From contig NW_019384981.1 in NCBI RefSeq assembly GCF_000671375.1, forward strand, positions 110,966 to 140,415: a DNA stretch of 29,450 nt. The letters are read 5' to 3'. Numbering within the stretch: position 1 is the stretch's first letter; each line of letters opens with the position of its first letter. Shown in pieces: positions 1,648 through 29,450 of this stretch. This DNA comes from Centruroides sculpturatus (taxonomy: Eukaryota). The notes under the pieces were generated by a model, which saw only the letters and a list, made by a program, of their open reading frames with translations, did not search any database and was not told where the DNA came from. Both the position numbers and the translations under genes were made by a program.

Positions 1648-1782
1648 CTAACCTTCAGATTTAGGAGTAATAGCCATTTCATTTTCATCTTCAAAACTCA
1701 TATACAGTAGGTTATCAACATCAATCTCTTCCAATAAATTAAATTTTAGAATGGAACCATCAAATGACGAAGAATCTTCTTC
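1648..1782 (-). CDS. PARP4: PARP4-like terminal exon 23 (includes TAG stop at 1648..1650)
   Basis: Acceptor tatttctag|GAA. Translation EEDSSSFDGSILKFNLLEEIDVDNLLYMSFEDENEMAITPKSEG* (human EDVDFLPYMSW). In-frame TAG follows. No further homologous coding sequence downstream in the window. Confidence 0.7.
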   Translation of the reverse strand, partial: EEDSSSFDGSILKFNLLEEIDVDNLLYMSFEDENEMAITPKSEG

Positions 1783-1853
1783 CTAGAAATAAGTTAAAAA
1801 TTAGATCATAAAAAATCTAAATTACAAGAAATTTTTATTTTAAATTCACTGAC

Positions 1854-2036
1854 TTCTGTTCTTTTCTCAACAGCAATAAAACTAGTAAGAGATGTAACCA
1901 AGTTAAATTGTTTACTAAATTCAATTATTTTCTCTCTATTGGATTTTTTTTCTAGCAATTGATCAACTCTGTCATCAGCAAGTAGACCATCTTCCCAATC
2001 TCGAATAATGGATCGAGCAGCTAATTTATGTAACAT
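1854..2036 (-). CDS. PARP4: PARP4-like exon 22
   Basis: Acceptor ttattatag|ATG. Translation MLHKLAARSIIRDWEDGLLADDRVDQLLEKKSNREKIIEFSKQFNLVTSLTSFIAVEKRTE matches human MIHKLAARALIRDYEDGILHENE...ITQFTSFVAVEKRDE. Donor GAA|gtcagt (phase 0) chosen so that VEKRTE|EED parallels human VEKRDENES. Confidence 0.85.
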
Positions 2037-2248
2037 CTATAATAAAAATTGTAAAGTATAAAAATACATACTTTAATTGAATATTTCTAATAAGATAATA
2101 TTAGTAATCTTTCTTTTCTGTTTGTATGTTATTAATTATGTTGAAATATATTAACATTTGAATCTAGAGCGTAAATTCATTCAGTTTAAGAATTAGCAAA
2201 CAAACACATTTTAAATTCACCCAATAATTGAAAAGTATTTAGACTTAC

Positions 2249-2329
2249 AATTCCTTCAGTGGCATTTAATTCAGAGGCATATAATACTGTTTCAAATTCT
2301 TGTCCTTCAATGTCTGCCTTCAACTTTAC
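2249..2329 (-). CDS. PARP4: PARP4-like exon 21
   Basis: Acceptor ttttctag|GTA. Translation VKLKADIEGQEFETVLYASELNATEGI matches human CALIQEKEFRTMVSTTELQKTTGT. Donor ATT|gtaagt, 27 codons. Confidence 0.8.
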
Positions 2330-3461
2330 CTAGAAAATAAATTTTATAGTTTTTTTTTGCACTGTGAAAAAGTATAAAATTACAAAAGTAATAAATTTAA
2401 ATATTTTAGTTCAACATATAAACTTGGAATAGGCACACATTGTTGTGCTAAAGATTATTACTATTATTATTGTGTTAGTGGAGTATACCCTATATGTGTA
2501 AATATCAGTGCCTAGTATTATGCTAAACCAAAGTCAAGACAACTACAGAAAACAAATGTTTCATTTACATGCTGTTTGTACATGTATCTGTGTTAAGAAT
2601 TTTCTCATTATATGACATATGTTAAGTATGGTAGCTTTTTGTAGAATGATGTATGTCTGTTGTGAAGACACAGTGTTTCAAGACATATATTATATGTGAT
2701 ATGACATCTATACAAGAAATTAAAGATAGAATTCATCTTACTTGTATCATCCTGCACTGACAAATATTATATTCATTAAGTTACATTCATTTGTGCTTTC
2801 TGTGGTATTTAAACCTGTAATTTCATAAATATTTCTTAAAATAAAATTATGAGTATTTTAAATTAATTCTGTGTACATAGTTTCATTAGTCACAATTGTT
2901 GTTTTTATGTTTTTATTGATACATGTTGTGCAGTACATGTATTCATGTGTAACTGTTTTTGAAGTAGTAAGTGTCTGATCTTCTGATGATCTAATGTTCT
3001 GTACATTGATGTAACTGCTGTGCAACTTAATGTTTGATATGTTCAAGCATTGTTTATGAAATAAGGATGTTGTGTACAATTGTTCTTTTCTGATCAACAA
3101 TCCTCTGCTCTGTAACAATGAGGTTGAGTATCTTTGTGTGAATTTGTCACATTTGTCTGTCTGTATGCTATCATGTCTGTTTTGAGTTTTGTAATATTAT
3201 AGTAGATATAAATGATGAATTCATCCATTTCTTGTGTCCATTTCATCTGTTGTTATGGTTTGTTTTTCAGCCTTAGTGATCAGTGGCTGGATTGTCACTG
3301 AAGCATGTTGGCTGGTTTGGTGTGTTATCATTGTGTTTGAGTGAGCTGGTGAATGTGTTTGTGTTGTTATTTATTATTATTTATTTATTATAAAAGTAAT
3401 ATTCTAGATAAATAAAACATAACATTTTAAAATCATGTATTTAATTCATAAATATACTTAC

Positions 3462-3635
3462 AAAACTAACACCTTCTGGACAAAATCCATAAATAATTTG
3501 CCTACATCCATTGAATATACTCATTATTTGTTTAGGTGTCTGAATCACTACTTCATTTCCATCATAACTGTTCTGCCATTCAATTCTTACATTTGTTAGA
3601 GATGCTTGAGTTGTTCTCATAATTTGTTTTTGTAC
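3462..3635 (-). CDS. PARP4: PARP4-like exon 20
   Basis: Acceptor attttaag|GTA. Translation VQKQIMRTTQASLTNVRIEWQNSYDGNEVVIQTPKQIMSIFNGCRQIIYGFCPEGVSF matches human IEDQMTRLCSPSCHSVSVKWQQLNPDVPEA...VPSLFLNDRLLVYGFIPHCT. Donor TTT|gtaagt, 58 codons. Confidence 0.85.
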
Positions 3636-6146
3636 CTTAAAATTAATACATTTTATTATTAATGTTAAATTAATAAAAAAAGTAATAAAACAGAGATATT
3701 CTAAACCAAATTCTAAAAACCAATATTCTAGAAGATTAGTAGAACAATCGTACAGACCAAATAATCTCATGTATTATCAAAAAACATCCTTTAATTCTAC
3801 AAAATCATATCTAGTTATAATTGCTATATATTTTAATTTCACTCTTCATACTCCTTTTTTATCAATTATATGTCAAATAAATGTAATTTAATAAATAAAA
3901 TATTTATCAGTAGATGATGCAAGTAAAATGAATTTTATCTTTAATTTCATTTTATCTTAACGATATCTTATAGAGTCATTAATATTTGAAAACAGTTGAG
4001 ATTTACATTTATATATATTATTAAAAAAAAAAAATGTTCATACAGAAATCACTAGAATGCTAGCTACTCATACATCTGATTATCAAAAAGACATCATACA
4101 TGCCAAACAACAGAATTAGGTGTATTATATCAAGTTCCTTTGAGCCCATTTGACATGCTTTGAAATTGTTACTTGTATGCAGGAACTCCAAAATAGTACA
4201 CATTTAGGAAACTTCATATTTTAAAACAATCACAATCATTTGACAGCGAGTCTTTTCAACCATTGGACCACTCTTATTAAACTTTTCAAGTAAATTGGAT
4301 TTGTATGATTTTTGCTAGAGCATTTTTCCCAACAATGGACTAATTACACTGGATTAATCACAGAACAGAATGATGCCAAGACATGTAATTTGCAGATTAA
4401 TTCTATGTATTTTACTGATTTTTCTATGATTTGTAAGCATATTTATACACTAGTAATTTCATAATAAAAATCTTGCAACTTATATAGAATGTAGGTGTGT
4501 GAGGGATGTTTCAGATGGGTATTTTGTAAATTCTATTAGAGTATATAGGTACTATAAATACATTATGATTTCATCAATTTTTCTGGAGGTTATATTGAAT
4601 TGTACAAATTTTCATTCAAGTTTTATGCTCTGTTTAAACTGATCTTGTTTGATGAAGTTTTGTCACATGTGTGTACATGTGAGGTTTTTATTATGAAATT
4701 ACTAGTATCTATACATATTCCTACAAATCCTAAAAAAGGATCTATGCATTAAGACTGAAGATGAACCTGTCATGTCCAAAATATAATTTGTAAAGTAAAT
4801 ACACAGAATTACTCTGCAAATTACGCGTCTTGAGGTCATTCTGTTCAGTGTTTAATCCAGTGTGATAAGTCCATCTTTGGGAAAAGTGAGCTAGCACAAA
4901 ATGTAATACAAAACAAGACAACAGACAAAAAGTGATCAGAATAATAAATTTGGTTTGTTCACAATATAGCAAATATAAAATTTTATATACATATTTTTAT
5001 ATTGTTTTAATTATTTTAAATTTAAAATTGTTATTCTAAATGCATGTTCCAAAAAAAATCTAACATCTTTTGTATTTACATCCCGATGCTCTTACTCCAT
5101 TTTTGTTCTAGTTGATTGAAGATGATAACTCAATGAAAAGTTGTAAAATTATAGTGATAATATTTAAGTGTATTCAATAATTTTTAACACCATAAGACAG
5201 TTAAACATACTTTAACTAATATTTTGGAATGTGGTATTTCATATCATTCATTTTACAATATTCCTTTTTTATAATTTTATAATATATAAAAATATAAAAT
5301 TTTATAATTTAATACAATCAAACCTCTGAATAACATCCACTGATGAAAACACAAAAAATGTCCATTATTAGACATTTGACTGTATTAAATTGATTTATAG
5401 ATTAAAAATAAACATTAAATTCAGAATTAATTTTGAAAGTAACTTCAAACATAAAAATTGTAAAATCAGTTAAAATGTTAAAATATATTCATAGATTGTT
5501 ATAAAAAGAACAGTAAATTTTATAATTATCAAATGTAGTTATAAATACATATTAATTTTTGAATATATATTAAAATTGATTGTTTTAAAGTTCTACATAA
5601 ATAAATATTTTTCATTAAAGTTATTTAAAGTTTTAATGAATCTAAAGATACAAGTGAATGTTGTCTCTCAATGAAAACAAATTATGAACAAGCAGAAAAC
5701 ATATTATTATTAACTAGATTACTGCAAACCATTTTTGAATCTGATTGAATATAATTACTTCACACAGTATAATATTACTTTTATATTCTTTAATGCTGTA
5801 TAACAGAAATAAATCAACTTTAAGTTAAAGAAACTTTAACAATTGAAGATAAGCTGTGAGTAAATTTAATTAATATTTAATAACCAAATGTTAATAATCA
5901 TTATTTACTTAATAACTAATCATAAGGCAACTCATTCAATTTGCTTTCACATAAATTCATATCTTTATTGTAATTCATAGTAATAGAATGAACAATACTA
6001 CTCTGAATTAAAGTAAAATATCTTACCTAAATGATCAAAGTTAATAATTTAATTATTCTTTTCACAAATTTTAAAAATAACAAAATAAATCATAAATATT
6101 AAGATTAATAAATTCAGATTTTCTTTATGCCAAATATTATATTTAC

Positions 6147-6252
6147 CATATTCTTCCAGTTTTCTAAATTTAAAGTATCTAAACATTCGTACACACCTCC
6201 ACTTTTATTAGCAATTTGTTGCAATGTATGTTTGTTGATATAAGTAGTTGAA
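6147..6252 (-). CDS. PARP4: PARP4-like exon 19
   Basis: Acceptor ttttttatag|T. Translation (S)STTYINKHTLQQIANKSGGVYECLDTLNLENWKNM matches human STANRHVLRILSQCGAGVFEYFN...SWRKQ. Donor ATG|gtaaat. Confidence 0.85.
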
Positions 6253-6341
6253 CTATAAAAAACAGCAAAGAGTTAGTAGTATAATAATATAAAAAATTTC
6301 ACATTACTTACAATGATGATAAAATTTCAAATAGTTCTTAC

Positions 6342-6597
6342 CTTAAACCTATTGTAAATATCCTCACTTTGTTGCTATAAGATTTGATACTTTTAAATAT
6401 TATCCTTTCATTATTAACATCACCATCACTCAAAAGAATTATATTCTTTATGCCTTTTCCAGCAGTTAATTGATAATATTTTAAAACTCTTGAAAATTCT
6501 GTATTACCTAATAATGTAACCTGTTTCAGGAAATTCATAGCTTTTTGCACATTTTTTGAATTGCATATTTGACTTGATGGAAATAACTCATGAAACA
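6342..6597 (-). CDS. PARP4: PARP4-like exon 18 (vWA domain, continued)
   Basis: Acceptor gatag|TG completes the codon. Translation VFHELFPSSQICNSKNVQKAMNFLKQVTLLGNTEFSRVLKYYQLTAGKGIKNIILLSDGDVNNERIIFKSIKSYSNKVRIFTIGL matches human YKELFSYPK...TPTMGNTDFWKTLRYLSLLYPARGSRNILLVSDGHLQDES...RLFACGIGS. Donor TTAAG|gtaaga, leaving 2 nt. Confidence 0.9.
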
Positions 6598-7319
6598 CTA
6601 TCAAAAAGAAATAATATTTAAATATAAAAATAAAGAATATAAGACTTCTGGTAAATCAAATTTTAGTATTGTATTACTTTTATTATTTAATTAAATAAAA
6701 ATCCAGCAACATTTAAAATTTTGATGGTGCCATATGTTATATTTTATTAGAAAACTTTTATATTTTTAATTATTGTAAAATTGCAAAAAAGCTTAATTTT
6801 GAGGGTGGGGACAGGTTTTTATAAAAAATTGTAAATGATAATAACAAATAAAATCGTCATTAAGTCTGATCCTACTGGAGATAAACACAACCGCTTTTAT
6901 CTCTCTATCCTGTCAACCTTTAACCACAAAAATTTAATAGCATCAATCCCCAATGCATGAACCTCCCTGCAAATTTCAGAAATTTTCGACAAAAAGCACA
7001 GGAGTTATTGAGCTTCATAGAAGGTGAAAAAAAATTAGTCCCCCACACAAACATCCATACATACAGGAAAACATCCAAAATTTTTTTGCATTTCTTGATA
7101 TTTCAAGGTGTCCTGAGTCCAAAAATGTAAAAATCTTAGGGGTCATTTTGACTGATAACCATACTTTCCCTTTTTTATATATAACAGAGCTAGAAAAGTA
7201 AAAATTACAAAATAAACCAAACCAAAGACGTCTAATGAAAGGTAATAAAAAATAATGGAAGCATGAATAATTTCTCTGATTAAACTGGATTGATGAAATA
7301 AGACAATGCAACACAAGTG

Positions 7320-7935
7320 ATCTGTCAAGGGATGCCCCCAATTTTCTACAGAAAACTGGCCTCTATTTAAGTGTTACACATGTAAAGAAAACCTAGAAAA
7401 CTCCACATGGCCAGAATGTTGGTAAAATGTGAATAGGGTATCCAACTTTCTTATATTAAACAAGAGGATATTGCACAGATATTGTTAAAGGATTATAAAG
7501 GACATTTGTTAGCCAGCAAATATTTATTGACTGACTATAAATCATAAAATAGTAAATAGACTATAAGTAGGGTTTTAAAATCAATGTTAAAATTATTATT
7601 AACTGTTGCACAATGCCACCCTAACTAAGTCCCTCAATTTTATTTTCTTGTCTGACTGTAATTAATAGTAGTGTCTTTCTCTTTCTGTTGAGTGATAAAG
7701 ATGAAACTATTACTTTAAAGTAAGAAAATAAAATATTGGAATGTTGTCTGCCAGTAATATAAAGTAAAATTAAACAAAAACAAACAATTAAGCATATACT
7801 TAAAAGAAAAACATTATTGATAAATGGAGGACTAGAGGACAATACAGTTCATTGGAGGACTAGCCACCCAAATAAAAGACAGTTACCAACTGCAGGTGCA
7901 AACCCATAACCAACTACATGTTAGATCACTAGTGG
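7320..7935 (+). repeat. Repeat family C, copy 1 (interrupted by a roughly 420-bp internal insertion at about 7440..7860)
   Basis: 7331..7440 ctggcctctatttaagtgttacacatgtaaagaaaacctagaaaactccacatggccagaatgttggt and 7895..7935 ggtgcaaacccataaccaactacatgttagatcactagtgggctaa are collinear with the uninterrupted copy at 23725..23890. Confidence 0.55.
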
Positions 7936-8060
7936 GCTAATTTCTTTGATAAATAAATTATGATTTAAAAACAGTAGAGATTTTGTTTTTCATTTAAATC
8001 TTTTAAATTCTTGCAATTTATTTGTATGAATGACTTTTTTCAACATTAAGAGTTTATTTA

Positions 8061-8490
8061 CAGTGGAGCGTCATTTATCCGAAAGTCGGTTATCCGAAAA
8101 AATTCCAGTTGGCAAATTTAAATTTCCACTAGTGTTGTGGCACTGCAATCTTTGGCTATGTCTTGGGCTACTCAAATATTTTACGTTTTTCATACTAAAT
8201 TAACTTCTGAAGTATAATTTTTTATTGTTTTTATATTTTTCAATATATTTATTTTGTTTGTACAAAATAAAGAAATAATTTTTAATGATACAATAGCCAC
8301 GATTATTATTTTAAAAAGTTTACATTAGGCTTAACATCGACAAAAATTCAATGCAAAGTGACACGCAATGGAGAAAAATTTCAGGATGGGATAGGTTAAT
8401 ATATTTTTTCGTACATAATCGGTTATCCGAAAAATAAGTTATCCGAACAACCCCAGTCCCCGATTGATTCAGATAAACGACACTTTACGG
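8061..8490. mobile_element. MITE-like element with terminal inverted repeats, TTATCCGAA subterminal repeats, and possible TA target-site duplication
   Basis: The 5-prime end cagtggagcgtcatttatccgaaagtcggttatccgaaaa at 8061..8100 pairs with the reverse complement of 8455..8490 (ccgtaaagtgtcgtttatctgaatcaatcgg). The motif ttatccgaa or ttatctgaa recurs at 8076, 8090, 8422 and 8436, and inverted at 8470. Flanks are ttTA|cagtgg and acgg|TActt. No ORF. Confidence 0.4.
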
Positions 8491-8810
8491 TACTTTTGTA
8501 ATGAGATCATCTGGAATGGTAAAATATGGACACAATTACAACTGTTCAAGAAAAATTCAAATGACTTAATCTGGATTAAATTTTTGAAATTTCCCGATAG
8601 TAGATGATACAAAATGATTTCCATTGTACACTGTGGATTTTTCCATATTAGAGATTAGTGAAATATTATTACTATTATTAACATATTTAGAACAGTCCTA
8701 CAGAAAAGAAAATATTCAAAAAAAGCAAAAAAAAAAAATATTGCATGAATTTCAACTAAACATTTAACAAAAACTTCAATACAATTTGTAAACTTTAAAA
8801 GCAGATCAAC

Positions 8811-8825
8811 TTTTTTTTTTTTTTT
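8811..8825. repeat. Poly-T homopolymer (15 nt), with a nearby A12 run at 8727..8738
   Basis: Direct reading. Confidence 0.9.
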
Positions 8826-9524: not shown

Positions 9525-9711
9525 CTGATCCAAAAACTACTATATTAAAATAACAATTGTGTGGAAGATTTTTGAGACATAGAACAGCTGTCTTCAAAGC
9601 ATCTGCAAATAATTTCCCTTGCATAGAATTTGATGCATCTAATGCAATAATTATCTCAGGATGAGGATTTGTAACTGCTTCAAATTCTGGATAAAATGTC
9701 AACATGCAAAC
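9525..9711 (-). CDS. PARP4: PARP4-like exon 17 (vWA domain with MIDAS motif DxSxS)
   Basis: Acceptor ttaaacag|GTT. Translation VCMLTFYPEFEAVTNPHPEIIIALDASNSMQGKLFADALKTAVLCLKNLPHNCYFNIVVFGS matches human ACMLVFQPDLD...EVIICLDCSSSMEG...KVNIIQFGTG. Donor CAG|gtaata, leaving 1 nt. Confidence 0.9.
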
Positions 9712-11616: not shown

Positions 11617-11748
11617 CTGTGAGTCTTCTTCAGAATTATTTTCAATCCACATTCTTGGAACATGGACTTCTTTCAAACTTATACATAATGTGAATCCATT
11701 ACCTAATATTGAATTTTCAAGTTTCACTACAGCTTTTGTTTCTGTTCT
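11617..11748 (-). CDS. PARP4: PARP4-like exon 16
   Basis: Acceptor ttctag|AGA. Translation RTETKAVVKLENSILGNGFTLCISLKEVHVPRMWIENNSEEDSQ matches human TDCKAVISTMEG...AYLPRMWVEKHPEKESE. Donor CAG|gtatgt, 44 codons. Confidence 0.85.
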
Positions 11749-11850: not shown

Positions 11851-11970
11851 CTTTGTCATAATTTTGTGTGTTGGAGAAGAAATTATATGAATGGGAAAAG
11901 GCATGTCTACAGCTATTTTTAGCGAAAATGAACCTCTCATGTCCATTAGATTTACAGATGACATTACATC
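11851..11970 (-). CDS. PARP4: PARP4-like exon 15
   Basis: Acceptor taaatag|GAT. Translation DVMSSVNLMDMRGSFSLKIAVDMPFPIHIISSPTHKIMTK matches human KEIGTKQSFSLTMSIEMPYVIEFIFSDTHELKQKRT. Donor AAG|gtaaat, 40 codons. Confidence 0.85.
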
Positions 11971-12612: not shown

Positions 12613-12771
12613 CTGAGTTTCAGTAATCAATTGTGAATGCCAAGGTGCAACAGTACCAGGTATATTAAAATTTATCACCTCATCAATTACAGGCAATTCT
12701 ATTATATATGTAATTTTAATGATCACTGTAGTTTTAGGAGGAATATTGCCAACACTTACAGTAAATACATT
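12613..12771 (-). CDS. PARP4: PARP4-like exon 14 (VIT domain, C-terminal part)
   Basis: Acceptor atttttcag|AAT. Translation NVFTVSVGNIPPKTTVIIKITYIIELPVIDEVINFNIPGTVAPWHSQLITETQ matches human DVFTVSVGNLPPKAKVLIKITYITEL...ATVAPWQQD. Donor CAG|gtaaat. Confidence 0.92.
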
Positions 12772-12833: not shown

Positions 12834-13052
12834 TGGTTGTTCTTCATCCATAAGATATGCCCCATGCCCTTTCTGAATGGCTTCTTTATATTCTTTATGA
12901 GCCGTTTCTTTCTCTTTTATCTCACCAACAATATGTTTATCATTTATGAATGCTTCAAAGCCACAAACAGCCGCTCCTACTTCTAAAGGAAAAATATATT
13001 TGGCTTCCACAGAACTATCATTGTTGTTTTGATACACTTGCAGAACAATTAC
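12834..13052 (-). CDS. PARP4: PARP4-like exon 13 (VIT domain, N-terminal part)
   Basis: Acceptor ctatacag|GTA. Translation VIVLQVYQNNNDSSVEAKYIFPLEVGAAVCGFEAFINDKHIVGEIKEKETAHKEYKEAIQKGHGAYLMDEEQP is near-identical in blocks to human VIVFQTYTNKSHVPIEAKYIFPLDDKAAVCGFEAFINGKHIVGEIKEKEEAQQEYLEAVTQGHGAYLMSQDAP. Donor CCA|gtaagc, 73 codons. Confidence 0.92.
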
Positions 13053-13136
13053 CTGTATAGAAATTAATATATTAATTTTGTAGATTAATAAATTACATAA
13101 ACTATAAACAAATTCTCTATTTATTATCTGTAATAC

Positions 13137-13279
13137 TTCAGATACTAAATCGATTATTTTTGCTTGGACATCAACTGATTTTAAGGGAACTTCAATATTT
13201 TCTACATTATTTATTAATTTCAAGCCAGCTTCTATTTTTTTATTACTTTCCACACTTAAATTCTCTTCAGTTTCAAAAT
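13137..13279 (-). CDS. PARP4: PARP4-like exon 12 (linker into VIT domain)
   Basis: Acceptor tttacag|AT. Translation DFETEENLSVESNKKIEAGLKLINNVENIEVPLKSVDVQAKIIDLVSE matches human TKAGLQDASGNLVPLEDVHIKGRIIDTVAQ. Donor GAA|gtatta, chosen because it restores collinearity with human IIDTVAQ|VIVFQ. Confidence 0.8.
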
Positions 13280-13630: not shown

Positions 13631-13787
13631 CTAAATTAATATGATTTTTATCAGGTTTAAGAGGAGGTTCTTCTTCTAAAAGCTCTGTGATATCTGGAAA
13701 AGGTTTCACATCATCCTCTGGCAATGAAAATTCAATCAAATATTTTAATTGTTGTTGACAAGGATCATAGATAACAAATTCATCATC
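13631..13787 (-). CDS. PARP4: PARP4-like exon 11 (catalytic Glu; end of PARP domain)
   Basis: Acceptor ttacaacag|GAT. Translation DDEFVIYDPCQQQLKYLIEFSLPEDDVKPFPDITELLEEEPPLKPDKNHINL matches human DDEFVVYKTNQVKMKYIIKFSMPGDQIKDF. Donor TTAG|gtaaaa, leaving 1 nt. Confidence 0.9.
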
Positions 13788-13863: not shown

Positions 13864-14047
13864 CTGAAAATCAGTTATTTCATAATCTGATGTTTTAATT
13901 CCATGAACACTTTCAAATCCTTCTGGAGGCTTACTCAGAGAAATCTGGAACTTATTTGTATGATATACTTTTCCTAATGCAACTTCACAAACCAGGATAA
14001 ATCTGGTATTCCTCATTTTATTCACAGCAGAATATTTAATGCAAGAA
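13864..14047 (-). CDS. PARP4: PARP4-like exon 10 (catalytic domain)
   Basis: Acceptor ttttag|T. Translation SSCIKYSAVNKMRNTRFILVCEVALGKVYHTNKFQISLSKPPEGFESVHGIKTSDYEITDFQ matches human LSTSIKYSHPGETDGTRLLLICDVALGKCMDL...PPGYDSVHGV...TTDFE. Donor CAG|gtgaaa. Confidence 0.9.
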
Positions 14048-14852: not shown

Positions 14853-15089
14853 CTTGCAGAATCCGTAAAATAAATTCCACTACCAAGCATTCCAACATCA
14901 GTTCTTTCAACTCCAGATTCTGCTACAATAACTCTTGGCAACTTCAAACCACGTGAAAGAATACCAACAATGTTAGAAGATACAGTAGAGTGAAATAATA
15001 ATTGTTTGTTTGATATTTGGCTTGTAAATTCTGCATATTCTATATCACGATGAATAGCATAAATATTATGAACTTTAATACATGTTTCC
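14853..15089 (-). CDS. PARP4: PARP4-like exon 9 (ADP-ribosyltransferase catalytic core, H and Y of triad)
   Basis: Acceptor ttgtag|G. Translation (R)ETCIKVHNIYAIHRDIEYAEFTSQISNKQLLFHSTVSSNIVGILSRGLKLPRVIVAESGVERTDVGMLGSGIYFTDSA matches human LLHGSPVQNIVGILCRGLLLPKVVEDRGVQRTDVGNLGSGIYFSDS. Donor GCAAG|gttggt. 237 nt, phases 2 in and 2 out. Confidence 0.9.
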
Positions 15090-15661: not shown

Positions 15662-16900
15662 ATTACAGTTAGAAATTGAACTGTAGCAGCCTGTTGATAT
15701 ATGCTTGAAATTGTGATGTACTCTGTTATGTAAAACTTATACAAATGTTTGAGTTCCACACATGTTGGTCACATGACAGCACAGATAAGAGATTTCAGGC
15801 AAATATGTGCATGCAGTCAGTTTTCGTTGGATGTGAAATTTGAATGTGGAGGAGTGAAGTTACAATAATAAAATTCTGGACATGTCTTCTAGGCAACATT
15901 TAGATGATTTTACTCATGAAAGAACAATCGGAAAGCTGGAAGAAGGGCAAAAAATAACAGATGTTGTGCATGAATTTAACATTGCACACAGTATCATTTC
16001 TAGACTATGGACAGCATTTCAAACTAGCGGAATGTGCAGCAGGCACAATGAGGAGGTCGTCCTAGCAGTACAACACCCCAAGAAGATCGGTATATTGTTC
16101 TTTCAGCAAAAAGGAATTGACGTAGCACAGCTGGTGAACTGGCAAGTCATTTACAGGGAGCCACAGGAACTAAGATATCCCATAAAACTGTTGCAAGACA
16201 TTTGTGAAAGAAATGGACTATACGCCTGAAGATCTGTTGTATGTGTCCCACTCGAAAGTCCACCGAAGTGCCCATTTGCAATGGTGCCGTCTGCATTGCA
16301 ATTGGACTAATGACAACTGGGCTATCATGTTCTTCTCAGATGAGAGTAGATCCAGTCTATCATCTGATTCTAGATGGCAACCGATGGGAACCAAGAGTGG
16401 AAGGAGAGTGAGAAAGATTGTTCTAGTCTGTCACAAGACAAGGTTCAACTCCATTGATTTACTCAGTACAAGTGGACATGATTATCGACAAAGACTGAGA
16501 TATTACTGTATCTAACAATTCTTAGATATTATTATAAATCTCACCCATAAAAATTAATTCACAGAATTCTATATTTTCTATTTACTTTGTTAATAACTTT
16601 GTTTGCATCAGCAGCACATCTTTTTCATTATTTAAATTGTTTTATTTTGCAAAGCATAAAATTATACAATATCTTCTTAAAAAAGCACGTTTAATAATCA
16701 ATTTTTATAAAACTTTAATTTATGCTTTTTCAAGAAAATCATTACTGTTTTTATTTGAACTAGAGGATACCTTATATGCAGGACTTTGAAGAACTTTTTG
16801 AAAAAGAAAAAACAGGGCAAAAATAAGAATATTAAGGATTCTTAATTATTTTCTAAATGCTTCTAAAAATTAAGGGTTTTTAAGGCATGTACAAACTGTA
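15662..16900 (+). mobile_element. Tc1-like DNA transposon fossil (frameshifted transposase, TACAGTT termini) inside the intron between PARP4 exons 9 and 8
   Basis: ORFs 15882..16229 and 16204..16515 carry Tc1 hallmarks. Frame 1 reads LDDFTHERTIGKLEEGQKITDV...ISRLWTAFQTSG. A shifted frame reads GGRPSSTTPQEDRYIVLSAKRN*RSTAGELAS (compare Tc1 GRPRATTPREDRYIVLSAKRNRRSTAQLVN), then TGTKISHKTVARHL, then LQWCRLHCNWTNDNWAIMFFSDESRSSLSSDSRWQ (compare RARLQWCREHRNWTVDQW..VLFSDESRF). The 5-prime end is TACAGTTAGAAATTG at 15664. Its inverted counterpart is caaactgta at 16892..16900, which reverse-complements to TACAGTTTG. The element is too short for an intact Tc1, so it carries internal deletions. Confidence 0.6.
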
Positions 16901-18061: not shown

Positions 18062-18222
18062 CGAAATTGTGAATTAATCACAAAATTATTCATTTTGTTA
18101 AATTCTTCACTATCAGAAGGCAAAAATTGAATATGACATCGAAGTGCTTTATATTTGGCATGGAAACAACCTTTCGGTGACCAACCAATGGCTTCACTGA
18201 CAGAAACCATATCTCGTAAAAC
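18062..18222 (-). CDS. PARP4: PARP4-like exon 8 (start of catalytic domain)
   Basis: Acceptor attttag|GTT, donor TTTCG|gtattg (2 nt carried over). Translation VLRDMVSVSEAIGWSPKGCFHAKYKALRCHIQFLPSDSEEFNKMNNFVINSQF matches human LIRDMVNV...AKYRALRCKIEHVEQNTEEF. Confidence 0.8.
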
Positions 18223-18294: not shown

Positions 18295-18471
18295 TTGACA
18301 TAGGTCTTTTTTTTGTGCAACTAATTGTTTAGACTTGATAGTTTGACTGTATTCTGGCACATGCGGTAAAATTGAATAAAATTCCTTACTAAGTTTCTCT
18401 AGTAATTCTTCTGAATCAAATTCATTTAACATTGAGTGAATTTGGAGTAAAATACTTTCTGCTTCATCAAT
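18295..18471 (-). CDS. PARP4: PARP4-like exon 7 (PARP helical domain)
   Basis: Acceptor tgtatag|ATT, donor CAA|gtgagg, 59 codons. Translation IDEAESILLQIHSMLNEFDSEELLEKLSKEFYSILPHVPEYSQTIKSKQLVAQKKDLCQ matches human ...TEFYRLIPHKGTMPKEV...LAKKADLCQ. Confidence 0.8.
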
Positions 18472-18564: not shown

Positions 18565-18699
18565 CTTCCACAAAGGTATAAATTCGGGATGACTTAGATA
18601 TTTCTTTAAATGTCCAATTGCTTCTGTCCATATTAATTCTACAATATTTAGAACATTTTTATCTATGTGTGAAGATAATGAACTTAATTCCAACTGCAA
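18565..18699 (-). CDS. PARP4: PARP4-like exon 6 (PARP helical/regulatory domain)
   Basis: Acceptor tattttcag|TTG, donor AAG|gtttgt. Translation LQLELSSLSSHIDKNVLNIVELIWTEAIGHLKKYLSHPEFIPLWK matches human SQEVSDLVEMIWAEALGHLEHML. Confidence 0.75.
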
Positions 18700-20709: not shown

Positions 20710-20877
20710 TTTTTGAAATGCAAGAGATCCAACTTCGGGATGTAGAATTTCCATAACTTCAATCATGTAATGAGGTGGTCCACATTTTGCAAAATAAAGC
20801 TGACTAAATACTGACAAAGCTCTTTCAGCTGTTTCAAGGAAATAACAAACTTTCTTACTTTCAACAATACTTTCATC
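20710..20877 (-). CDS. PARP4: PARP4-like exon 5
   Basis: Acceptor tttttcag|GAT, donor AAA|gtatgc, 56 codons. Translation DESIVESKKVCYFLETAERALSVFSQLYFAKCGPPHYMIEVMEILHPEVGSLAFQK. Collinear with the human region between BRCT and the helical domain. Confidence 0.65.
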
Positions 20878-20948
20878 CTGAAAAACATCATCATTATTTT
20901 AATTTCAAATAATAATGGCATTTTATATTCAAATAAATTCATCATTAC

Positions 20949-21095
20949 TTGTTGACTTATGTGTCCTTCTTCTACAAACACACAAAACTGTTTATCTGTT
21001 TCAACAACATTTCTTTCACTAGAAGCAACATGAAGTTCAACAATACAAAAATTATAACGTAATGTACCGCTTGAAGATGCTTTTTGTGCTTTTCC
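20949..21095 (-). CDS. PARP4: PARP4-like exon 4
   Basis: Acceptor ctttttaag|GGA. Translation GKAQKASSSGTLRYNFCIVELHVASSERNVVETDKQFCVFVEEGHISQQ; the QKASSS block matches human DQKASSSE. Donor CAA|gtaatg. Confidence 0.7.
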
Positions 21096-21240: not shown

Positions 21241-21356
21241 CTTCAAAACCACAGGTTTAACAAGTTCATATCCAAGTAACTCTTCATATGGATATGTTGG
21301 AAGTGAATTCAAAAATACTTGAACAGTTGTAGGCTGTTTTTGCACATCCGAAGACA
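21241..21356 (-). CDS. PARP4: PARP4-like exon 3
   Basis: Acceptor ttttcag|TG supplies the 2 nt that complete the codon from exon 2. Translation SSDVQKQPTTVQVFLNSLPTYPYEELLGYELVKPVVLK (human NYDPYKPLDITPPP region). Donor AAG|gtgaat. Confidence 0.7.
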
Positions 21357-21528: not shown

Positions 21529-22444
21529 TGTGAGGGACGAACAGACCCACAATAAAGTATTATTTTAAATTTTAATTATTGGAAACTTTAATCGGTTAAA
21601 TTCGAACGTTTTATCGAGTTAGGCTAAAAGCCATAAAAATTATTTCCCACGGAGTTTGTTCCTTGTTGAGTCGTATCAAGTTAGTCAGGGATGTGTCACC
21701 AGGAACTTTTGAGGGAGAAGACATATTGGACGTGCGACCGTTAAAGGCCATCACCTGACCTCATGGAAAAAACCCAAGAGGAAAAAAAAAGAGAAAAGAA
21801 AACGATCCCGAGGTCAGTCGTCATCCGAAGTCCCTCTACAAAAGTCATCCTCCAGGATTAAAACCGTGACCCAGGATTAAAACCCGTGACCCAGGATAAA
21901 ACCCGTGACCCAGGATAAAACCCGTGATCCAGGATAAAACCCGTGCACCAAAATCCCGAAATAACACCTTGACAGAAGTAACACCGTGTCTCCTTAAGAA
22001 TCTCACCCCACTTCCGTGCTTCCACACCTCCGAGATCCAATTAACGGACAAGAACTAGTGGAAAGACCATTTCAGAGGAGTCAAGAGTGTCATCATACTA
22101 TAGATCTGCGACCTAGGAAAAAGAAAGGTATTTATCAACCCGCGATTCGGTTGTAAACTCTCTCTCTCGAACGGAATAGTATAATTAAGTCCGCTAATAT
22201 GCCCGATATCTCTGTATTTTCTTTGTTTATTATTAAAATGGAATTTTTGTCAGAACATATGGAGTCCGAGTGAGTCACTTCCTCGTCTCTCTCCTCACCT
22301 CTACTCCGAATCCAAGCGCTCACACGCTACCGCTCGCGAATCTTTAGACATAACGTCGCGATTTCCGAGTCCCCCAGAGACTCGGTGGTGTCAGATTCAG
22401 GTCTCCTGACAGGGCGCCAAAGAGGTGCCGACCCTACGGTCACA
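21529..22444. mobile_element. Putative solo LTR (GC- and CpG-rich) inserted in PARP4 intron 2
   Basis: A roughly 916 bp block begins TGTGAGGGACG and ends CGGTCACA (terminal inverted TGTGA/TCACA, TG...CA). It is flanked by direct ATTA (21525..21528 and 22445..22448; ATTAT if the element is taken from 21530). GC content is far above the surrounding sequence, with about 49 CpG by my count against near-absence elsewhere. It has internal tandem repeats and a TATAAT-like box near 22180. No ORF is present and no second LTR copy occurs in the window. Confidence 0.55.
21852..21950. repeat. Tandem repeat, 5 copies of a 19-20 bp unit CCAGGAT(T)AAAAC(C)CGTGAC, inside the putative LTR
   Basis: Direct reading gives ccaggattaaaaccgtgac, ccaggattaaaacccgtgac, ccaggataaaacccgtgac, ccaggataaaacccgtgat, ccaggataaaacccgtgca. 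Each unit carries a CpG. Confidence 0.85.
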
Positions 22445-23724
22445 ATTATATCAAGAATTTTTTTTACTACTTTAATACAATCCTGTTAAACAACAAATGC
22501 AATAAAATAAATAATAAAATTCAATGTATTCTGATAATAAATATCTGGTAATACACCATATATACTGTATTTTATAATGTGCCAAATTAATATTTAAAAT
22601 CCATAACTATATAGGTATGTGCTGCTTAACAAATGTAATTGTCAAATATCAATATAGAATATAAGAATATGAAAAAACAGCACTATACACTAACAATTTA
22701 TACATTATTAGTATACAGTGCTACAATTATTACATGTAAAAACAAGAGGCACACAAAACTGATAGAAGGTATATGTTAAGTACAGAATTTTTTAATATGA
22801 TCTATTTATATCATGATGTTATTCTTTGGATTATAGAAACATGTAATGAAAATATTTCTGCAATTACATTTATTATATATAATACATCAGATATAAGTAT
22901 GCTGATAAATGCATATCGTCATCAGAAATAAATTCTTAAATTCCTTTGCAATATAACTTAGATGCTAAGCAAACCTGAAGGTTCACTCAATCATAGTTTA
23001 CCTAACAAAAAATTATTCAATGTTATTTTTATCAGATTTCAGAGGAATTTAAAGAACAAACTGAAATAATACATAACAATGATGTTTTAATTCATTTTTA
23101 AACTTATTTAGCTGTATTGAATTTCATCCAAATAATAATTAATTTAATGCATTTATAACAAAATTTCCTGTAAGAAATTCAAACAACAATTATCAATTTA
23201 CTTTGTATTGTTTAATTCCATGATTACTGATAACTCACAGATTTGAGTAAGATAAAAATATCTGAAAATAAATAACTTATTTTTATTGTTTATTTTTATC
23301 AATCTTATTTTAAGAGTTACACAAAACATAAAACTGAATTACAAGTTCAATATATAGAATAAATATTTAAATATTTTAAATTCTAATCTACTTTTCATAT
23401 ATAGTTGAATCTGTATCTCAAATATGTTTACTTAAAAAGCTCTTTATCTTGAAATTTATTTTCCCCCTGTATTTTCAGTCTAAATTCAATATATTTTCCA
23501 TGTTTATTGCAAATAATTTTCTCACAAAACCTCTATATCTCAAATTACAGATGAATTATCAATTACAACCTCAAAGCTAAGCAACTACATTATGGTATCA
23601 TAAATTGTAGTTGAGAAACATCTCTTGCAATATAGCAAATAGTTATAATTAACACTGCTTTTCTTTGATTGGCTATGACTTTGGTTTAGTTTATTTGTTT
23701 ATGGCCACGTGATACATGAGCAAT

Positions 23725-23890
23725 ATCCCCAGGAAAGACTTTAATAGGAAACTGGTCCCTATTTAGATGTTACAAATGTGAAGAAAACCTGGATAACTCC
23801 ATGTGGCCAGCCTGTTGGTGAGGTGCAAACTCAGGACCAGTGTTCAGTGATTTTATCCACTCAGCCACTGGTGGGCTAAGGCTATGAGTT
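23725..23890 (+). repeat. Repeat family C, copy 2
   Basis: Reads ctggtccctatttagatgttacaaatgtgaagaaaacctggataactccatgtggccagcctgttggtgaggtgcaaactcaggaccagtgttcagtgattttatccactcagccactggtgggctaagg. Confidence 0.55.
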
Positions 23891-24339
23891 TGGCTTGCAT
23901 CTTATTGGTTGAAGAAAATCAGGCATTAGAAACTATTGACAAACTATTTTTGTTAAGGTATGTCAAAAATGTTTTATCTATACCTAATTCAAGTATGTAC
24001 TGTATTTGCTACTGTGTTAATAAAATACCATATTTCCAACCAAACCTATTACTGTGCAGGAACCTTTATATCTCAAAATCTGACTAACTCAAATTTTTTC
24101 TCATTCCCGTGAAATTCAAGACAGAGAGATTCATCTGTATCTTTTTATAAATCATTATTATTTTTCTTAAAAAAATCTAACGATATAGCTTTATATATTT
24201 AATAAAAACATTTTTAAATTGATCAGATTAAAATATTACAGCCATTAGAAAAATGGAAAAGAAGTCATGATTAGAAAGATATGAAAATAAAAAGTTGTAC
24301 AGAAGAAACAGAAATGCTATGAAAATTTCAACACACACA

Positions 24340-24450
24340 ATAAAAAATAATAATATGAAAAGGATAAGGCAATGGTTTTTAACTAGTTTGCTGCGGCATA
24401 CTAGAATGCTGCAGTGACACTTTAGGGGATGCCACAAAATAGTACTGAGA
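24340..24450 (+). repeat. Repeat family B, copy 1 (about 90-100 bp shared block)
   Basis: Reads ...ttgctgcggcatactagaatgctgcagtgacactttaggggatgccacaaaatagtactg. Near-identical to 26095..26190. Confidence 0.6.
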
Positions 24451-25337
24451 AACATAAGGATTCTTACATGTATTACTGAAAGTTCAAAGCATGTACTAAC
24501 TCTATATTGACAAAGAAGTATGAGTACAGCAAGAAAAAAAATTATCAAGTTTAGGTGGCACTATTAAAAAAATGTTGGAAAACATTGGAGAAGAAATTTA
24601 GAATGGAGGAATGGAGAAGAAATTTAGAAGAAAAGCAATAAAAACATATAAAGAAATTTTTAAATTTATACTAGTACAATATTTTATTTACTGTATTCGT
24701 TACTACTACTATTATATCAAGTACACACTCACAAATCTCAATTTTGTATATTATATTATGAACAAATATTGTTCATTTTTCAGTTAAATGTTCCAGCCAA
24801 ATATATAATTAAATCCTAGAATTTTTTTTTTAAATATGGCAAACGTGTAAAATTAACACAATGTAGATACTTTTTAAACATAAACATGTGTACCAAATAC
24901 AGTACAGAAATTTATAAATGTAAATGTATTTGATCTGTTATTTTGAATTCCATTTCTTTGTATATCATGCTGCTAATCTGAACAACCTCATACTGTAATT
25001 ATTACAGTTCAAATCATTAACAGTACACTGTAATCAGTTTAATGTGTATGACATTGACTAATTTTTATAAAATAAATCAGAAATTAAAATTTTTAAATAA
25101 TTTAAAGAAAATATATCAGAACAGAAACAAGTTTTAATTTTTATTTTATATTCTCTCAGATCTTGTTTCACTAAATGTCAAAAATTACCTCGAGTTTATT
25201 TAAACTAACATCAAATTATTCTAAGAATTATATACTATATTATTATTTTTTGTAAAATATAATGTAAAATATTCTTCCAAAATATATTCTTAACACTTAA
25301 CAGGTTTACTAAAATTTTAATTATGAATTTAATTTAC

Positions 25338-25530
25338 CGAAAATTTTTCCTTTACGAAAGCCATTCATTTGTGTTTCATTTGAAATCAGGAAGGATTTGG
25401 AATCAAGTAGCTTCTTGTTTTTTAAACATGCATTAATATAATCTTCTTTTACCATAGGAATTCCATATTTCTTTGCTGTCTTTTGTTTCATTGACGAAGT
25501 ATTTGATTCTAAACAAATTACAAATTTAGT
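25338..25530 (-). CDS. PARP4: PARP4-like exon 2 (BRCT C-terminal part)
   Basis: Acceptor tttttttttcag|ACT, phase 0. Translation TKFVICLESNTSSMKQKTAKKYGIPMVKEDYINACLKNKKLLDSKSFLISNETQMNGFRKGKIF matches human THIILDNADVLS...FIWKSIREKRLLD. Donor TTCG|gtaaat, leaving 1 nt. Confidence 0.75.
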
Positions 25531-25604
25531 CTGAAAAAAAAAAATATAATAGCAAGTGAGTAAATTATATATTCCTTATATAGTGTTAATATACTGCTGA
25601 AATT

Positions 25605-25905
25605 TTTAGACAAGTAATTATTCATTGTGACATCTTCATAATGCTGAGCTGCAATATTTAATCATCTTTTAATTTAAAAAGAAATCAAGTGACTTCCCTG
25701 AACCGGAAGTCACTTGAAGTTAAATGAGGTTTCTGGTCCTTAAGCTTTTCATATCTGTTTTGCCCCTGTACATCATACTTCTCCTGATAACAATCAAGTC
25801 ATACCCGTCATCTATATAACTCTGTTCTCAAGATTAATGAAGGACAGACAGACAGATAAATGCCAGTGGGAATTTATAGGTCTGCAATTTGAAAATTGTA
25901 GCTTA
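25605..25905 (+). repeat. Interspersed repeat family A, copy 5
   Basis: Reads attattcattgtgacatcttcataatgctgagctgcaatatttaatcat...ccttaagcttttcatatctgttttg...ctctgttctcaagattaatgaaggacagacagacagataaatgccagtgggaatttataggtctgcaatttgaaaattgtagc. Confidence 0.7.
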
Positions 25906-26094
25906 AAAATATCAATCAATTAATACACATTAAGTATTGAAAAATAAAGATTTCAAAAACACAAAAATCATTTATTTAGAATTGAAGATTTCAAATTGAG
26001 TGTTTCATTATTAATATTGTCAGGATTCTGACATTAAAGAATCAAATGAGTAATTATGATTTATGAATATGTAGGTAGCATTATAAAATACACA

Positions 26095-26190
26095 TGTAAG
26101 AGGATGAAAATAGCTATTGGCTCTAATTGTTGCAACATACTAGAATGCTGCAGTGACACTTTAGGGGTGCCATAAAATAGTTACTGTTTG
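26095..26190 (+). repeat. Repeat family B, copy 2
   Basis: Reads ...ttgttgcaacatactagaatgctgcagtgacactttaggggtgccataaaatagttactg. Same orientation as copy 1. The two copies flank PARP4 exon 2 (25338..25530). Confidence 0.6.
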
Positions 26191-26377
26191 CTAATATAAA
26201 ATTCTAATTTATTGCAATTAAATTTTCAAATCCAAAAGAACATTAAACAGTTTTAATTATACATACAACACATACAAATCTATAATTGAATCTTTACATA
26301 CCAACTGATTGTAATTAAAAATATCTCTGTTCAATGCTGACTAGAGAAATATTTAGCAGTTTAAATTCAATCAAATT

Positions 26378-26761
26378 TGGTATGGTGACATTTCAAACGA
26401 CCTGTCTTGAAATGTCACTATACCAATAAAATAAAATTAGTACCAAAATTCACCACTATGGTATTTTTGACACTGAAACAACAAGCATTTTATTTCTACA
26501 AGGCATTCATGCTATACAAAGAAACCCTAGCAATGCAGGAAATACTACTCAATGTGGTCTCCTTTGAAAGTGTATAACCTGAAGGCATTTGACAGCTGAC
26601 AGTAATTAATCCTCTATGATGCTTCTCACAGGCAAAGTAATACTATCTCTCAAGTTGACAAATTTGCAACAGGTCCTTGATAAATCACACTTTTTTAGTA
26701 TCAAAACAAACAAAATTATTGCTTGTAGCACCAAAAGTTCCATAGTGGTAAGTTTTGGTAC
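26378..26761. mobile_element. Foldback/MITE-like element: a perfect-ish hairpin plus about 34-bp terminal inverted repeats
   Basis: Hairpin: ttggtatggtgacatttcaa (26378..26397), 10-nt spacer, ttgaaatgtcactataccaa (26408..26427), with 1 mismatch. TIR pair: gtaccaaaattcaccactatggtatttttgacac (26440..26473) against the reverse complement of gcaccaaaagttccatagtggtaagttttggtac (26728..26761). The interior, including ORF 26616..26840, has no recognisable homology. Confidence 0.45.
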
Positions 26762-29285
26762 AAATTGTTTTTTTATGGAAATGTCTTCTGCAAGTCTTAA
26801 AATGTTACCTTATCATTTAGACTGCTGGATGTCTTGCTAAAAAGCATTGAAACTTTAATTAAAATCACCTGATACATAAAAAATTAGAAATTGAAACGGA
26901 ATCATAGCTCAGTAATCTTGTACAGTTCTCAATCAATTACACTAAATACAATATTGTCAAATAAATGGCAATGAAAATTAGTACAATCAAAACAAGATGA
27001 ACGAACATGGATAAATGAAATGTACTCTGTATGTTAACCGTTCTGCTTTTTTTACCAAATATAAAAATGATAAAATGTTAAGGAGTCTTTGAATATTTTA
27101 ATCAAGATTAAACATCTTTCAAAACATTCTTCCTCTTCATCAGGTCACTAATTCAAATAATGAACAGTTTCCATTTTAAAAATATTCTCATAGCACTATT
27201 TGAAATATATTACATTACTGAGACTTATGTTTTGAGTTTAAAATATAATCTCTTATGAAATAACCTATTAAAATAAATGTGCAATATATAATATAAAAAA
27301 AAAATAAAAAAAACACCTATTATATAAAATTAACACCTTGTAAATCATTAGATTTTAAAGTAATAAGAAAGTAAAATACAGGTAGCCTTCATACAACACG
27401 GTTTTGCTTTAACATGGTTAGAAAATTCGGAATATCCCACATACAATGCAACAACCGGTTTTGCTTTAACACAGTTTTGGAACTCCTCAGTACAAAATTT
27501 CACAATTTTTAAGTGTAAATTTCATTATTTGATTTTTTTTATTCACACAAGCATGCATGTTGTCTCAAATTTGTCCATGAATTTTAGAATATTGAAATTT
27601 TCAATTCGTTTTGTGCCTTTTATCAGGTTCACTATAATAAAGACTGATAGTACAATTTTTTATTCCTTGTCCTAACTTTCCTATCAATCAATGTCATTGT
27701 TGTTGCTTTCAGACTTTAGCCCTCAAGCCACTGTGTTTTCTTTTTATAGATTAATCTTCGTATTTAGTAGTTTATTTAAACATTTAACTGTAGATAAGCA
27801 ATCATTCATAAAATGACAAATGAAATACAATGATAACTCAGTACTTGGACAATTCAGCATTCAAACACAAATTTTGGAAAAAAGTTGCTTGGTAAGCGAC
27901 TGAACAAAGACAACCCGGTAGAACAAATTTTCTATTAATAACATATTTTTATTTCATCACCCATAAAAATTTTTTATGATGATAATAAAATGTATGAAAA
28001 TTTTGCAGATACTTCTGATCAAGATCAACAAAAAAGCTGAGATGACAACGATAATTTGTAAAAAGAAAGTACTCGTTTAACTAAAATTAATATTAACATG
28101 TCATACAGTATTTTTAATTGTGATTATTAGTAAATTATTGACTGGAAATAAATTATTAATTGCGTTAATAAACACATTTCTCTTAATTATGAAAAAGAAT
28201 AGTATACTTTTGCTAACTTCTGGAATGTAACCCTATGTTTTGCATTAGTTCTTTGTTTCGTGTAGCACAGATTCACATAACATGACACTTTTTCGGAACA
28301 TATCTACTGTGTTATATGAGGGATACCTGTAATTTCTTTTCTACGGAAACATGTTTATGCTAATTTTTCTATGTACTATGACTAATTACTGACATTTATC
28401 ATTTCACAAACACAATATTCAGCACATAATAACAATTTAACAGATGTTAGAAGATATTGAAAAACTTTTATTTTATGATGAACTAGCCAATGTACCATCA
28501 ATGTTCAGGTTAAGAGACTTGAACAAGTAAGAGTTGTGAAGAAAATAAAGCAATGAAAATAGTAATCACATTTTTATGTAACTTGTACAGACTAGTTTCA
28601 TCAATTTTACAGAAATATTCATAAAGATTAAAAAGTTCCTCTCAAATGATGATGAAAGTAATTCTTAATACAGCGATCTGTAACAAAACAATTTAAAGTG
28701 ATACACTTCAAGAGGCAATAATTGTATTTCAAAGAAATATTGAAAGCAGATTGAAAACAATATTAATAAAATTCTTTAAATACTTTCAAAACATTCGTGC
28801 ATCATTAGGTTTCAAGTGATAAATTTAATTTACTGATATTTGGTCAAAAGGACACCAATAAAATGATAACAACACTGCTTAGTTAGTTACACATCATTAT
28901 TCTGATCATGTGTTGTTAACAATAAAACAAAAATAATGAAAATTTGATATCAAGAAATAAAATAATTACTGTAAACAGCAGAAGTTATATAAATAATAAA
29001 AAACACAATAAAAATATTTTATAAAAATAATAAGAATTACTATTAATTAAGTTGTTAAAATCTGTTAAATTTAAACAGAGACAATTCATTACTTTTAGCA
29101 TCATGAAATCATCTGATTTTATATCATTATTTGATATCATCATATTTTTACAGAAAATTCTCTTTTATGCTTGTAATAAATTTATTTTTTTTAATTACTT
29201 GTACTTATAATGTATTAATTAGAACATTTATCATCATTCTAAACACTCAATTAATAACAATCTAATTATTAAGTTATAAACTTAC

Positions 29286-29450
29286 CTTTTTAGTAACCAT
29301 ATACGATACAATTCCCCCGTTATCAATGATTTTTCTCCTCAATTCTTGTTTCTCTTTCATTTTCATCGAGGGAGGCATATCTAAAACTATTTCATAGTTA
29401 CTAAATAATTTTCTTTCTATGTGTTTGCATAAAATTTCTTCTTGATTTGG
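29286..29450 (-). CDS. PARP4: PARP4-like exon 1 (partial, BRCT N-terminal part; continues beyond window end)
   Basis: Minus-strand translation PNQEEILCKHIERKLFSNYEIVLDMPPSMKMKEKQELRRKIIDNGGIVSYMVTKK aligns to human PARP4 N-terminus (KKKLQTDIKENGGKFSFSL). Donor AAG|gtaag at 29285. No in-frame stop up to window edge; start codon not located. Confidence 0.7.

Follow-up and report, generated by a model that had tools for sequence, protein, structure and literature searches.

In human and other vertebrates, PARP4 (vault PARP, VPARP) is built of BRCT, PARP helical, PARP catalytic, VIT and vWA domains in this order, and its interaction with the major vault protein (MVP) has been assigned to a C-terminal region, the INT domain, at VPARP residues 1563–1724 (PMC5665922). 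The VIT-vWA part of this architecture, with an FVAVE-type block after vWA, recurs in VWA5A and in the inter-alpha-trypsin inhibitor heavy chains, which lack both BRCT and PARP domains. Here we analyse the PARP4 gene in 29,450 nt of the scorpion Centruroides sculpturatus (assembly GCF_000671375.1, contig NW_019384981.1, positions 110,966 to 140,415 of the forward strand), the whole of this stretch being called the window below. A sequence-only reading of the window had taken the gene to end at an in-frame TAG (1648), with the MVP-interaction region missing. We consider it likely that this region seems to be missing because the window ends 1.6 kb after an internal exon whose 5' splice site (donor) contains the in-frame TAG.

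The domain order of vertebrate PARP4 is shared by the scorpion gene. Along the protein encoded in the window, Pfam finds BRCT at the N-terminus (E=3.1e-11, residues 13–91 of the draft protein), PARP_reg, PARP (E=2.8e-27), VIT (E=1.6e-38) and VWA (VWA_3, E=4.7e-22), which is the PARP4 order. The H-Y-E triad of the catalytic domain is intact, with the histidine in LLFHST, the tyrosine in GIYFTD and the glutamate in DDEFVIY aligning with the PARP4 and PARP1-type residues, and the vWA domain conserves DASNS of the MIDAS motif and LLSDG. Both the triad and the MIDAS motif align also with the PARP4s of vertebrates, brittle star and sea anemone. All strong matches to the window protein are PARP4 or PARP4-like, the best of them being PARP4s throughout. 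Vertebrate PARP4s are 35–40% identical to it across ~98% of its length, and the triad, the MIDAS DxSxS and the FVAVEKR and VD.LPYM.W blocks are kept in the scorpion. The two differ further along the chain, where the linkers cannot be aligned (that of Centruroides consists of a FGSGPTPSSVPQ-type Ser/Pro repeat) and identity to the Centruroides tail described below drops to only ~22%. The window protein is 100% identical to residues 62–1304 of RefSeq XP_023233095.1 (C. sculpturatus PARP4-like isoform X2). On its Pfam order, its best matches and this identity, the gene is a PARP4 orthologue with a BRCT-PARP-VIT-vWA core, as the sequence-only reading had proposed, and it is an ordinary one, already annotated in RefSeq.

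The gene occupies the minus strand of the window from 29450 to 1653 (Table 1), where, in DNA of ~26% G+C, it appears as a chain of short open stretches with PARP4-like translations. The exon model was built by listing all frame-compatible GT/AG pairs between neighbouring coding blocks, and the resulting draft was then corrected against homologues. It contains 23 exons, with GT...AG at the ends of every intron and consistent phases throughout, and the coding content of exons 1–23 amounts to 1243 codons plus 1 nt. The number of exons, their splice sites and phases and the codon count stated earlier from the letters alone are thus reproduced, and the blocks quoted then (EAKYIFPL, AAVCGFEAFI, HIVGEIKEKE, GHGAYLM, LDASNSM, LLSDG and FIAVEKR) are all present. 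The gene is cut by the window at its 5' side also: the frame is open to 29450 and 61 N-terminal residues lie beyond the edge.

Exon 23 ends with ...CCT AAA TCT GAA G/GT TAG TTA AGT (the slash marks the exon-intron junction), and the TAG at 1650–1648 is indeed in frame, 44 residues past FIAVEKR. The donor, AAG/GTTAGT, agrees with the consensus MAG/GTRAGT at eight of nine positions, and its score is reached by only 13 of the 1532 GT sites on the minus strand (0.85%), seven of them being the PARP4 gene's own donors. Since the TAG consists of intron bases of a strong donor, the end of the frame shows only that the donor has been read past, and not that the exon is terminal. That a stop follows so closely is not informative either, since the internal exons 1–22, when read through past their own donors, also run into a stop, at a median distance of 7.5 codons (range 1–108). 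Poly(A) hexamers downstream of the TAG are likewise uninformative, as their background frequency on the minus strand is one per 194 nt. The TAG is therefore almost certainly a splice site misread as a stop codon, and of the earlier claim the in-frame TAG stands but the terminal exon most likely does not.

Comparison within the genus points in the same direction. The locus of C. vittatus (L001) aligns to the window from 2400 to 215 with ~90% identity, and all 23 exons are common to the C. vittatus RefSeq models. Exon 23 (window 1653–1782, L001 ~54040–54169) is only 81.5% identical in nucleotides between the two species, compared with 93–97% for the flanking introns and 97–98% for exons 21 and 22. 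Of its 43 codons, 18 are changed (16 nonsynonymous and two synonymous differences), while the remaining PARP4 protein is 91–100% identical between the two. This suggests that protein evolution has sped up where the linker begins; rapid evolution of PARP4 is also reported for primates (PMC4038475). The divergence ends abruptly at the splice site: C. vittatus is identical in the last 8 bases of the exon, in the donor and in 20 or more bases of the intron (ATCTGAAG followed across the junction by GTTAGTTAAGTAT). A conserved donor beside a fast-evolving exon is the pattern that would be expected of a splice site in use.

The RefSeq models of C. sculpturatus, XP_023233094/95, splice exactly at this donor and then continue with AQIENVCCKVCGDESSGMHYG..., which after ...PKSE brings in a genuine zf-C4 domain (Pfam E=4e-31). 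Taken at face value, they would mean that exon 23 is joined to nuclear-receptor zinc-finger exons in a PARP4–zf-C4 fusion of 1390/1398 aa, and in C. vittatus zf-C4 exons do lie on the same strand 4.4 and 7.6 kb past exon 23 (L001 58532–58627 and 61754–61924). However, the same join in C. vittatus yields an alanine and then TAA, so that the two congeners do not share the open reading frame (ORF) of the fusion. In C. sculpturatus the model moreover ends by reading through a second consensus donor, AATG/GTGAGT, after the second finger, and is thus itself incomplete, and PF00105 is found in no other PARP4 among the matches listed. We regard the fusion as a chimeric model, and a genuine fusion protein as extremely improbable. 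As to the zf-C4 exons themselves, the two in C. vittatus together specify an entire nuclear-receptor zf-C4 DNA-binding domain, whose P-box, CESCKGFF, is unusual. The domain is only 81–88% identical between the two species; no gene is called there in C. vittatus. The exons may be part of a nested gene, of a pseudogene or of a receptor that has escaped annotation.

The VD.LPYM.W block of exon 23 is conserved across Metazoa, with the sequence after it diverging, and the exon can be followed into other animals. The brittle star Amphiura filiformis (L003) has an exon, MLHQLTAR...VAIETRDK, with the boundaries of Centruroides exon 22. The next exon, of 129 nt (43 codons), starts where exon 23 starts and ends with GAA/GTAAGT. 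Many further coding exons follow it, so that this exon is internal there. An even closer counterpart is the second-best match to the window protein, P0002, a protein of 1933 aa with 70% identity over the whole window protein (the next best match has 42%) and with the same domains. It represents a cluster of 17 proteins of ~1933 aa (listed members 1929–1933 aa) from Logan contigs of ~6 kb, and its source is, at this level of identity, most likely another scorpion. Of these contigs one was examined (L002, run SRR2790072): its ATG is preceded by an in-frame stop, the ORF closes with TAA before a 3' untranslated region of 285 nt, and it runs uninterrupted past the site of the Centruroides donor for another ~640 aa. 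Exon 23 is thus most likely internal, to judge from these homologues, and not an alternative terminal exon.

Where, then, is the C-terminal part in C. sculpturatus? A search with the P0002 tail alone returned two proteins, one of which is the product of C. sculpturatus LOC111632786 (XP_023233079-82, 565–585 aa), annotated as 'uncharacterized' or 'mucin-5AC-like'. Over their C-terminal 243 aa, this protein and P0002 can be aligned in full, with 45% identity (E=2e-63). A profile built from the scorpion tails matches the extreme C-terminus of most full-length PARP4s, including nemertean, rotifer, fish and mammalian ones, always co-linearly. When it was compared by hhalign with 18 vertebrate tails, the probability was 96.8% (E=2.6e-10, 101 columns), with the FL..KGI.SLG and QYP.IC.RLELG.DW blocks included in the alignment. 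The mammalian stretch that is matched covers approximately residues 1575–1690 of ~1700, which lies within the INT region. On these alignments the C. sculpturatus genome encodes a PARP4 C-terminal domain homologous to the vertebrate INT region. Pfam assigned no family to the tail protein (PF26156 and PF26166 appear only in precomputed annotations), and the tail profile had no match among solved structures at E<=10. The name 'mucin-5AC-like' stems from the FGSGPTPSSVPQ-type Ser/Pro-rich linker and is misleading, since the protein ends in a PARP4 INT-like domain. The four LOC111632786 isoforms (P0113–P0116) differ by small in-frame indels in or beside this repeat.

The contig of LOC111632786 and that of the PARP4-like gene are both 388,916 bp long, and the LOC111632786 accession numbers are 12–15 lower. 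From the identical size and the nearby accessions, the two apparently reside on the same scaffold, with the tail beyond the window. The lengths also fit, as 1304 + 585 = 1889 aa compares with 1933 aa in P0002. In the window itself, tblastn with P0002 and the Centruroides tail protein gave no match in positions 1–1647. The earlier statement that no homologous coding sequence lies downstream holds in this sense, but it rests on only 1647 bases, all that the window contains on this side. Introns in the window reach 4 kb, and in C. vittatus the gap between two consecutive matched exons is ~13 kb (34477 to 47261). Since the tail is absent both from the 1.6 kb in the window and from 10 kb in C. vittatus, intron 23 would have to be longer than 10 kb and to include the zinc-finger exons.

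Several observations weigh against joining exon 23 to this tail. The common scaffold does not come from coordinates, and the order and strand of the two models are deduced. Homology is demonstrable only for the last ~245 aa of LOC111632786, and the similarity of its N-terminus to the basic cluster of the linker is not significant (156 of 2000 shuffles reach the score). The tail search gave no C. vittatus protein with the tail domain, tblastn found no tail exon within 10 kb downstream in that species, and the downstream flank there carries the two same-strand zf-C4 exons instead. A Centruroides transcript that links exon 23 with the tail was not found, in collections that contain no Centruroides transcript assemblies. 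The donor of exon 23 is of phase 1 in Centruroides and of phase 0 in the brittle star, a shift of one base. Finally, both C. vittatus RefSeq models, XP_067141073/74 (1304 and 1313 aa), end with ...ASEG at the same TAG, and a short isoform made by read-through may therefore exist.

These points can be put together into a different picture, in which PARP4 is truly short or the gene is split: PARP4 would end at the TAG because intron 23 is left unspliced or polyadenylation takes place inside it, and a separate protein of ~580 aa with the INT-like domain would be made from its own promoter. The ends of the C. vittatus models speak for it. So do the C. sculpturatus annotation, which gives the tail a gene of its own with four Met-initiated isoforms, and the nuclear-receptor-like exons found in place of tail exons in the 10 kb of C. 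vittatus. The TAG in the donor is, moreover, kept in both species, so that any unspliced transcript would yield exactly this product. On the other side, the donor is near-consensus and conserved beside a fast-evolving exon, the orthologous exon is internal in Amphiura filiformis, and the close relative makes a single protein of 1933 aa. P0002 is a single ORF on one mRNA-like contig, whereas its Centruroides counterparts are annotated as separate genes. The model ends carry less weight than they seem to, as Gnomon models at this locus demonstrably stop by intron read-through, the C. sculpturatus one through AATG/GTGAGT. The gene end tabulated for C. vittatus is exactly the stop codon, which may only mean that coding-sequence ranges were tabulated.

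Overall, we consider a truly short or split PARP4 unlikely. Still somewhat less likely, in our opinion, is its functional variant, in which the ancestral PARP4 would have been split within the fast-evolving linker, with the TAG ending a vault-independent enzyme whenever intron 23 is retained and the INT-like domain made separately. If true, PARP4 catalysis would here have been naturally freed from vault targeting, and this in a phylum for which an absence of vaults has been reported. The earlier proposal of a lineage-specific short, possibly vault-independent PARP4 without the MVP-interaction region is not supported, in view of the donor, the RefSeq models that splice there, the internal orthologous exon, the 1933-aa relative and the tail in LOC111632786. 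Its fallback, an alternative terminal exon, was probably right in expecting further exons, which LOC111632786 would provide, and most likely wrong in making exon 23 itself terminal.

LOC111632786 could also derive from a second PARP4 paralogue, for instance one surviving from the whole-genome duplication of arachnopulmonates, in which case the window copy would have lost its tail. Scorpions share an ancient genome duplication (PMC5535294), and the vWA exons are partly duplicated on a second C. sculpturatus contig (P0097). However, the whole-protein search gave only one Centruroides PARP4 cluster, and LOC111632786 is devoid of the N-terminal part of PARP4 and appears to sit on the same scaffold as the window gene. 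P0097, furthermore, is identical to window exons 17–19 and so looks like a haplotig. The N-terminus of LOC111632786 was considered as a second copy of exon 23, which would have been a signal of a paralogue, and was rejected, because its similarity to exons 22 and 23 is not significant (347 of 2000 shuffles reach the score). We find a paralogous origin of the tail very unlikely. P0097 itself (XP_023242416.1) is a 195-aa 'vWA domain-containing protein' on a contig of 212,066 bp, which matches the window from 9711 to 6147 before reading on into intron sequence that differs slightly; in the assembly it probably represents a haplotig, or else a partial copy of the PARP4 locus.

The reading that we favour, an internal exon 23 followed by a tail outside the window, leads to the following model of the gene. 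The window would hold most, but not all, of C. sculpturatus PARP4, exons 1–23 encoding the BRCT, PARP-helical, PARP-catalytic, VIT and vWA modules with the FIAVEKR and DVD.L.YMS blocks, and the TAG being intron sequence read in frame. From exon 23 the transcript would continue across an intron of more than 10 kb, holding the two nuclear-receptor-like zinc-finger exons, to the exons of LOC111632786, which would add the Ser/Pro-rich linker and the INT-like C-terminal domain of ~245 aa. The joined product would have ~1889 aa. Splicing of exon 23 to the tail exons in Centruroides is most likely, given the evidence above, and the function would by homology be vertebrate-like, an ADP-ribosyltransferase tethered inside vault particles via its C-terminal domain, the binding of the scorpion tail to MVP being putative.

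The coordinates of all features are collected in Table 1.

Table 1. Exons of the C. sculpturatus PARP4 gene and the donor and intron that follow exon 23, in window positions.
Feature	Position	Strand	Evidence or remark
Exon 1, as visible (BRCT start)	29286..29450	-	Pfam BRCT; open to edge
Exon 2 (remaining BRCT)	25338..25530	-	Pfam BRCT
Exon 3 (VSSDVQKQ...VVLK)	21241..21356	-	Homologue alignment
Exon 4	20949..21095	-	Match to XP_023233095.1
Exon 5	20710..20877	-	Splice-pair listing, match to XP_023233095.1
Exon 6	18565..18699	-	Splice-pair listing, match to XP_023233095.1
Exon 7 (PARP regulatory/helical domain)	18295..18471	-	Pfam
Exon 8 (PARP_reg end, PARP catalytic start)	18062..18222	-	Pfam
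Exon 9 (PARP catalytic; His in LLFHST, Tyr in GIYFTD)	14853..15089	-	Pfam, alignment
Exon 10 (PARP catalytic domain)	13864..14047	-	Pfam
Exon 11 (PARP catalytic; Glu in DDEFVIY)	13631..13787	-	Pfam, alignment
Exon 12 (VIT start)	13137..13279	-	Splice-pair listing, match to XP_023233095.1
Exon 13 (VIT core: EAKYIFPL, AAVCGFEAFI, HIVGEIKEKE, GHGAYLM)	12834..13052	-	Pfam
Exon 14 (VIT end)	12613..12771	-	Pfam
Exon 15	11851..11970	-	Match to XP_023233095.1
Exon 16	11617..11748	-	Match to XP_023233095.1
Exon 17 (vWA; MIDAS motif DASNS)	9525..9711	-	Pfam, alignment
Exon 18 (vWA; LLSDG)	6342..6597	-	Pfam, alignment
Exon 19 (vWA end)	6147..6252	-	Pfam
Exon 20	3462..3635	-	Match to XP_023233095.1
Exon 21	2249..2329	-	Match to XP_023233095.1
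Exon 22 (MLHKLAAR...FIAVEKRTE)	1854..2036	-	Boundaries those of brittle-star exon MLHQLTAR...VAIETRDK
Exon 23 (130 nt, 43 codons + 1 nt, phase 1 end; conserved EIDVDNLLYMSF block)	1653..1782	-	Most likely internal
5' splice site AAG/GTTAGT	1647..1655	-	G of GT at 1652; TAG 1650-1648 is intron +3 to +5
Intron 23, first 1.6 kb, non-coding	1..1646	-	93-95% identity to C. vittatus, as in other introns

Some further features of the window lie in the introns and the 3' flank. Intron 12 (13053–13136) is 84 nt long, in frame and free of stops, so that exons 12 and 13 form a continuous open stretch of 163 codons with it. Its retention would add 28 residues to the N-terminal part of the VIT region and keep the frame; RefSeq removes it. 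The intron between exons 2 and 3 contains a 19-nt tandem repeat, CCAGGATAAAACCCGTGAC, in 4.9 copies with 93% match at 21852–21945, within a locally G+C-richer stretch (33%). On the plus strand there are ORFs of 115, 103 and 43 aa, at 15882–16515 (intron 8) and 355–486 (downstream of exon 23), the first of those in intron 8 sitting in a G+C-richer island (31–33%). To the eye they seemed transposase-like, but Pfam found no match for them.

For the biology of PARP4 the locus itself is of little import: it is a standard orthologue present in RefSeq, and its apparent truncation reflects the window edge together with a stop inside a splice donor. The value of the result is rather in curation. The RefSeq models of the two species differ at their 3' ends, the C. 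sculpturatus one going into zinc-finger exons and the C. vittatus one into the intron as far as the TAG, and the INT-like domain is in neither. Where evidence runs out, the gene models of this locus evidently stop by reading on into an intron. At the 3' end of PARP4, both Centruroides annotations appear to be wrong: one fuses it to zinc-finger exons and the other stops in an intron, while the INT-like tail is mislabelled.

The tail bears also on the question of vaults. No MVP was found in any arthropod, and loss of vaults in the group was proposed (Daly et al., 2013, PMC3762200). Our search with human MVP is uninformative on Centruroides, its best 120 matches being all from tetrapods, and literature searches found no report on scorpion or chelicerate MVP. 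Despite the arthropod survey, scorpions would, by the sequences assembled here, keep a full-length PARP4 with a conserved INT-like tail, which hints that vaults may persist in chelicerates.

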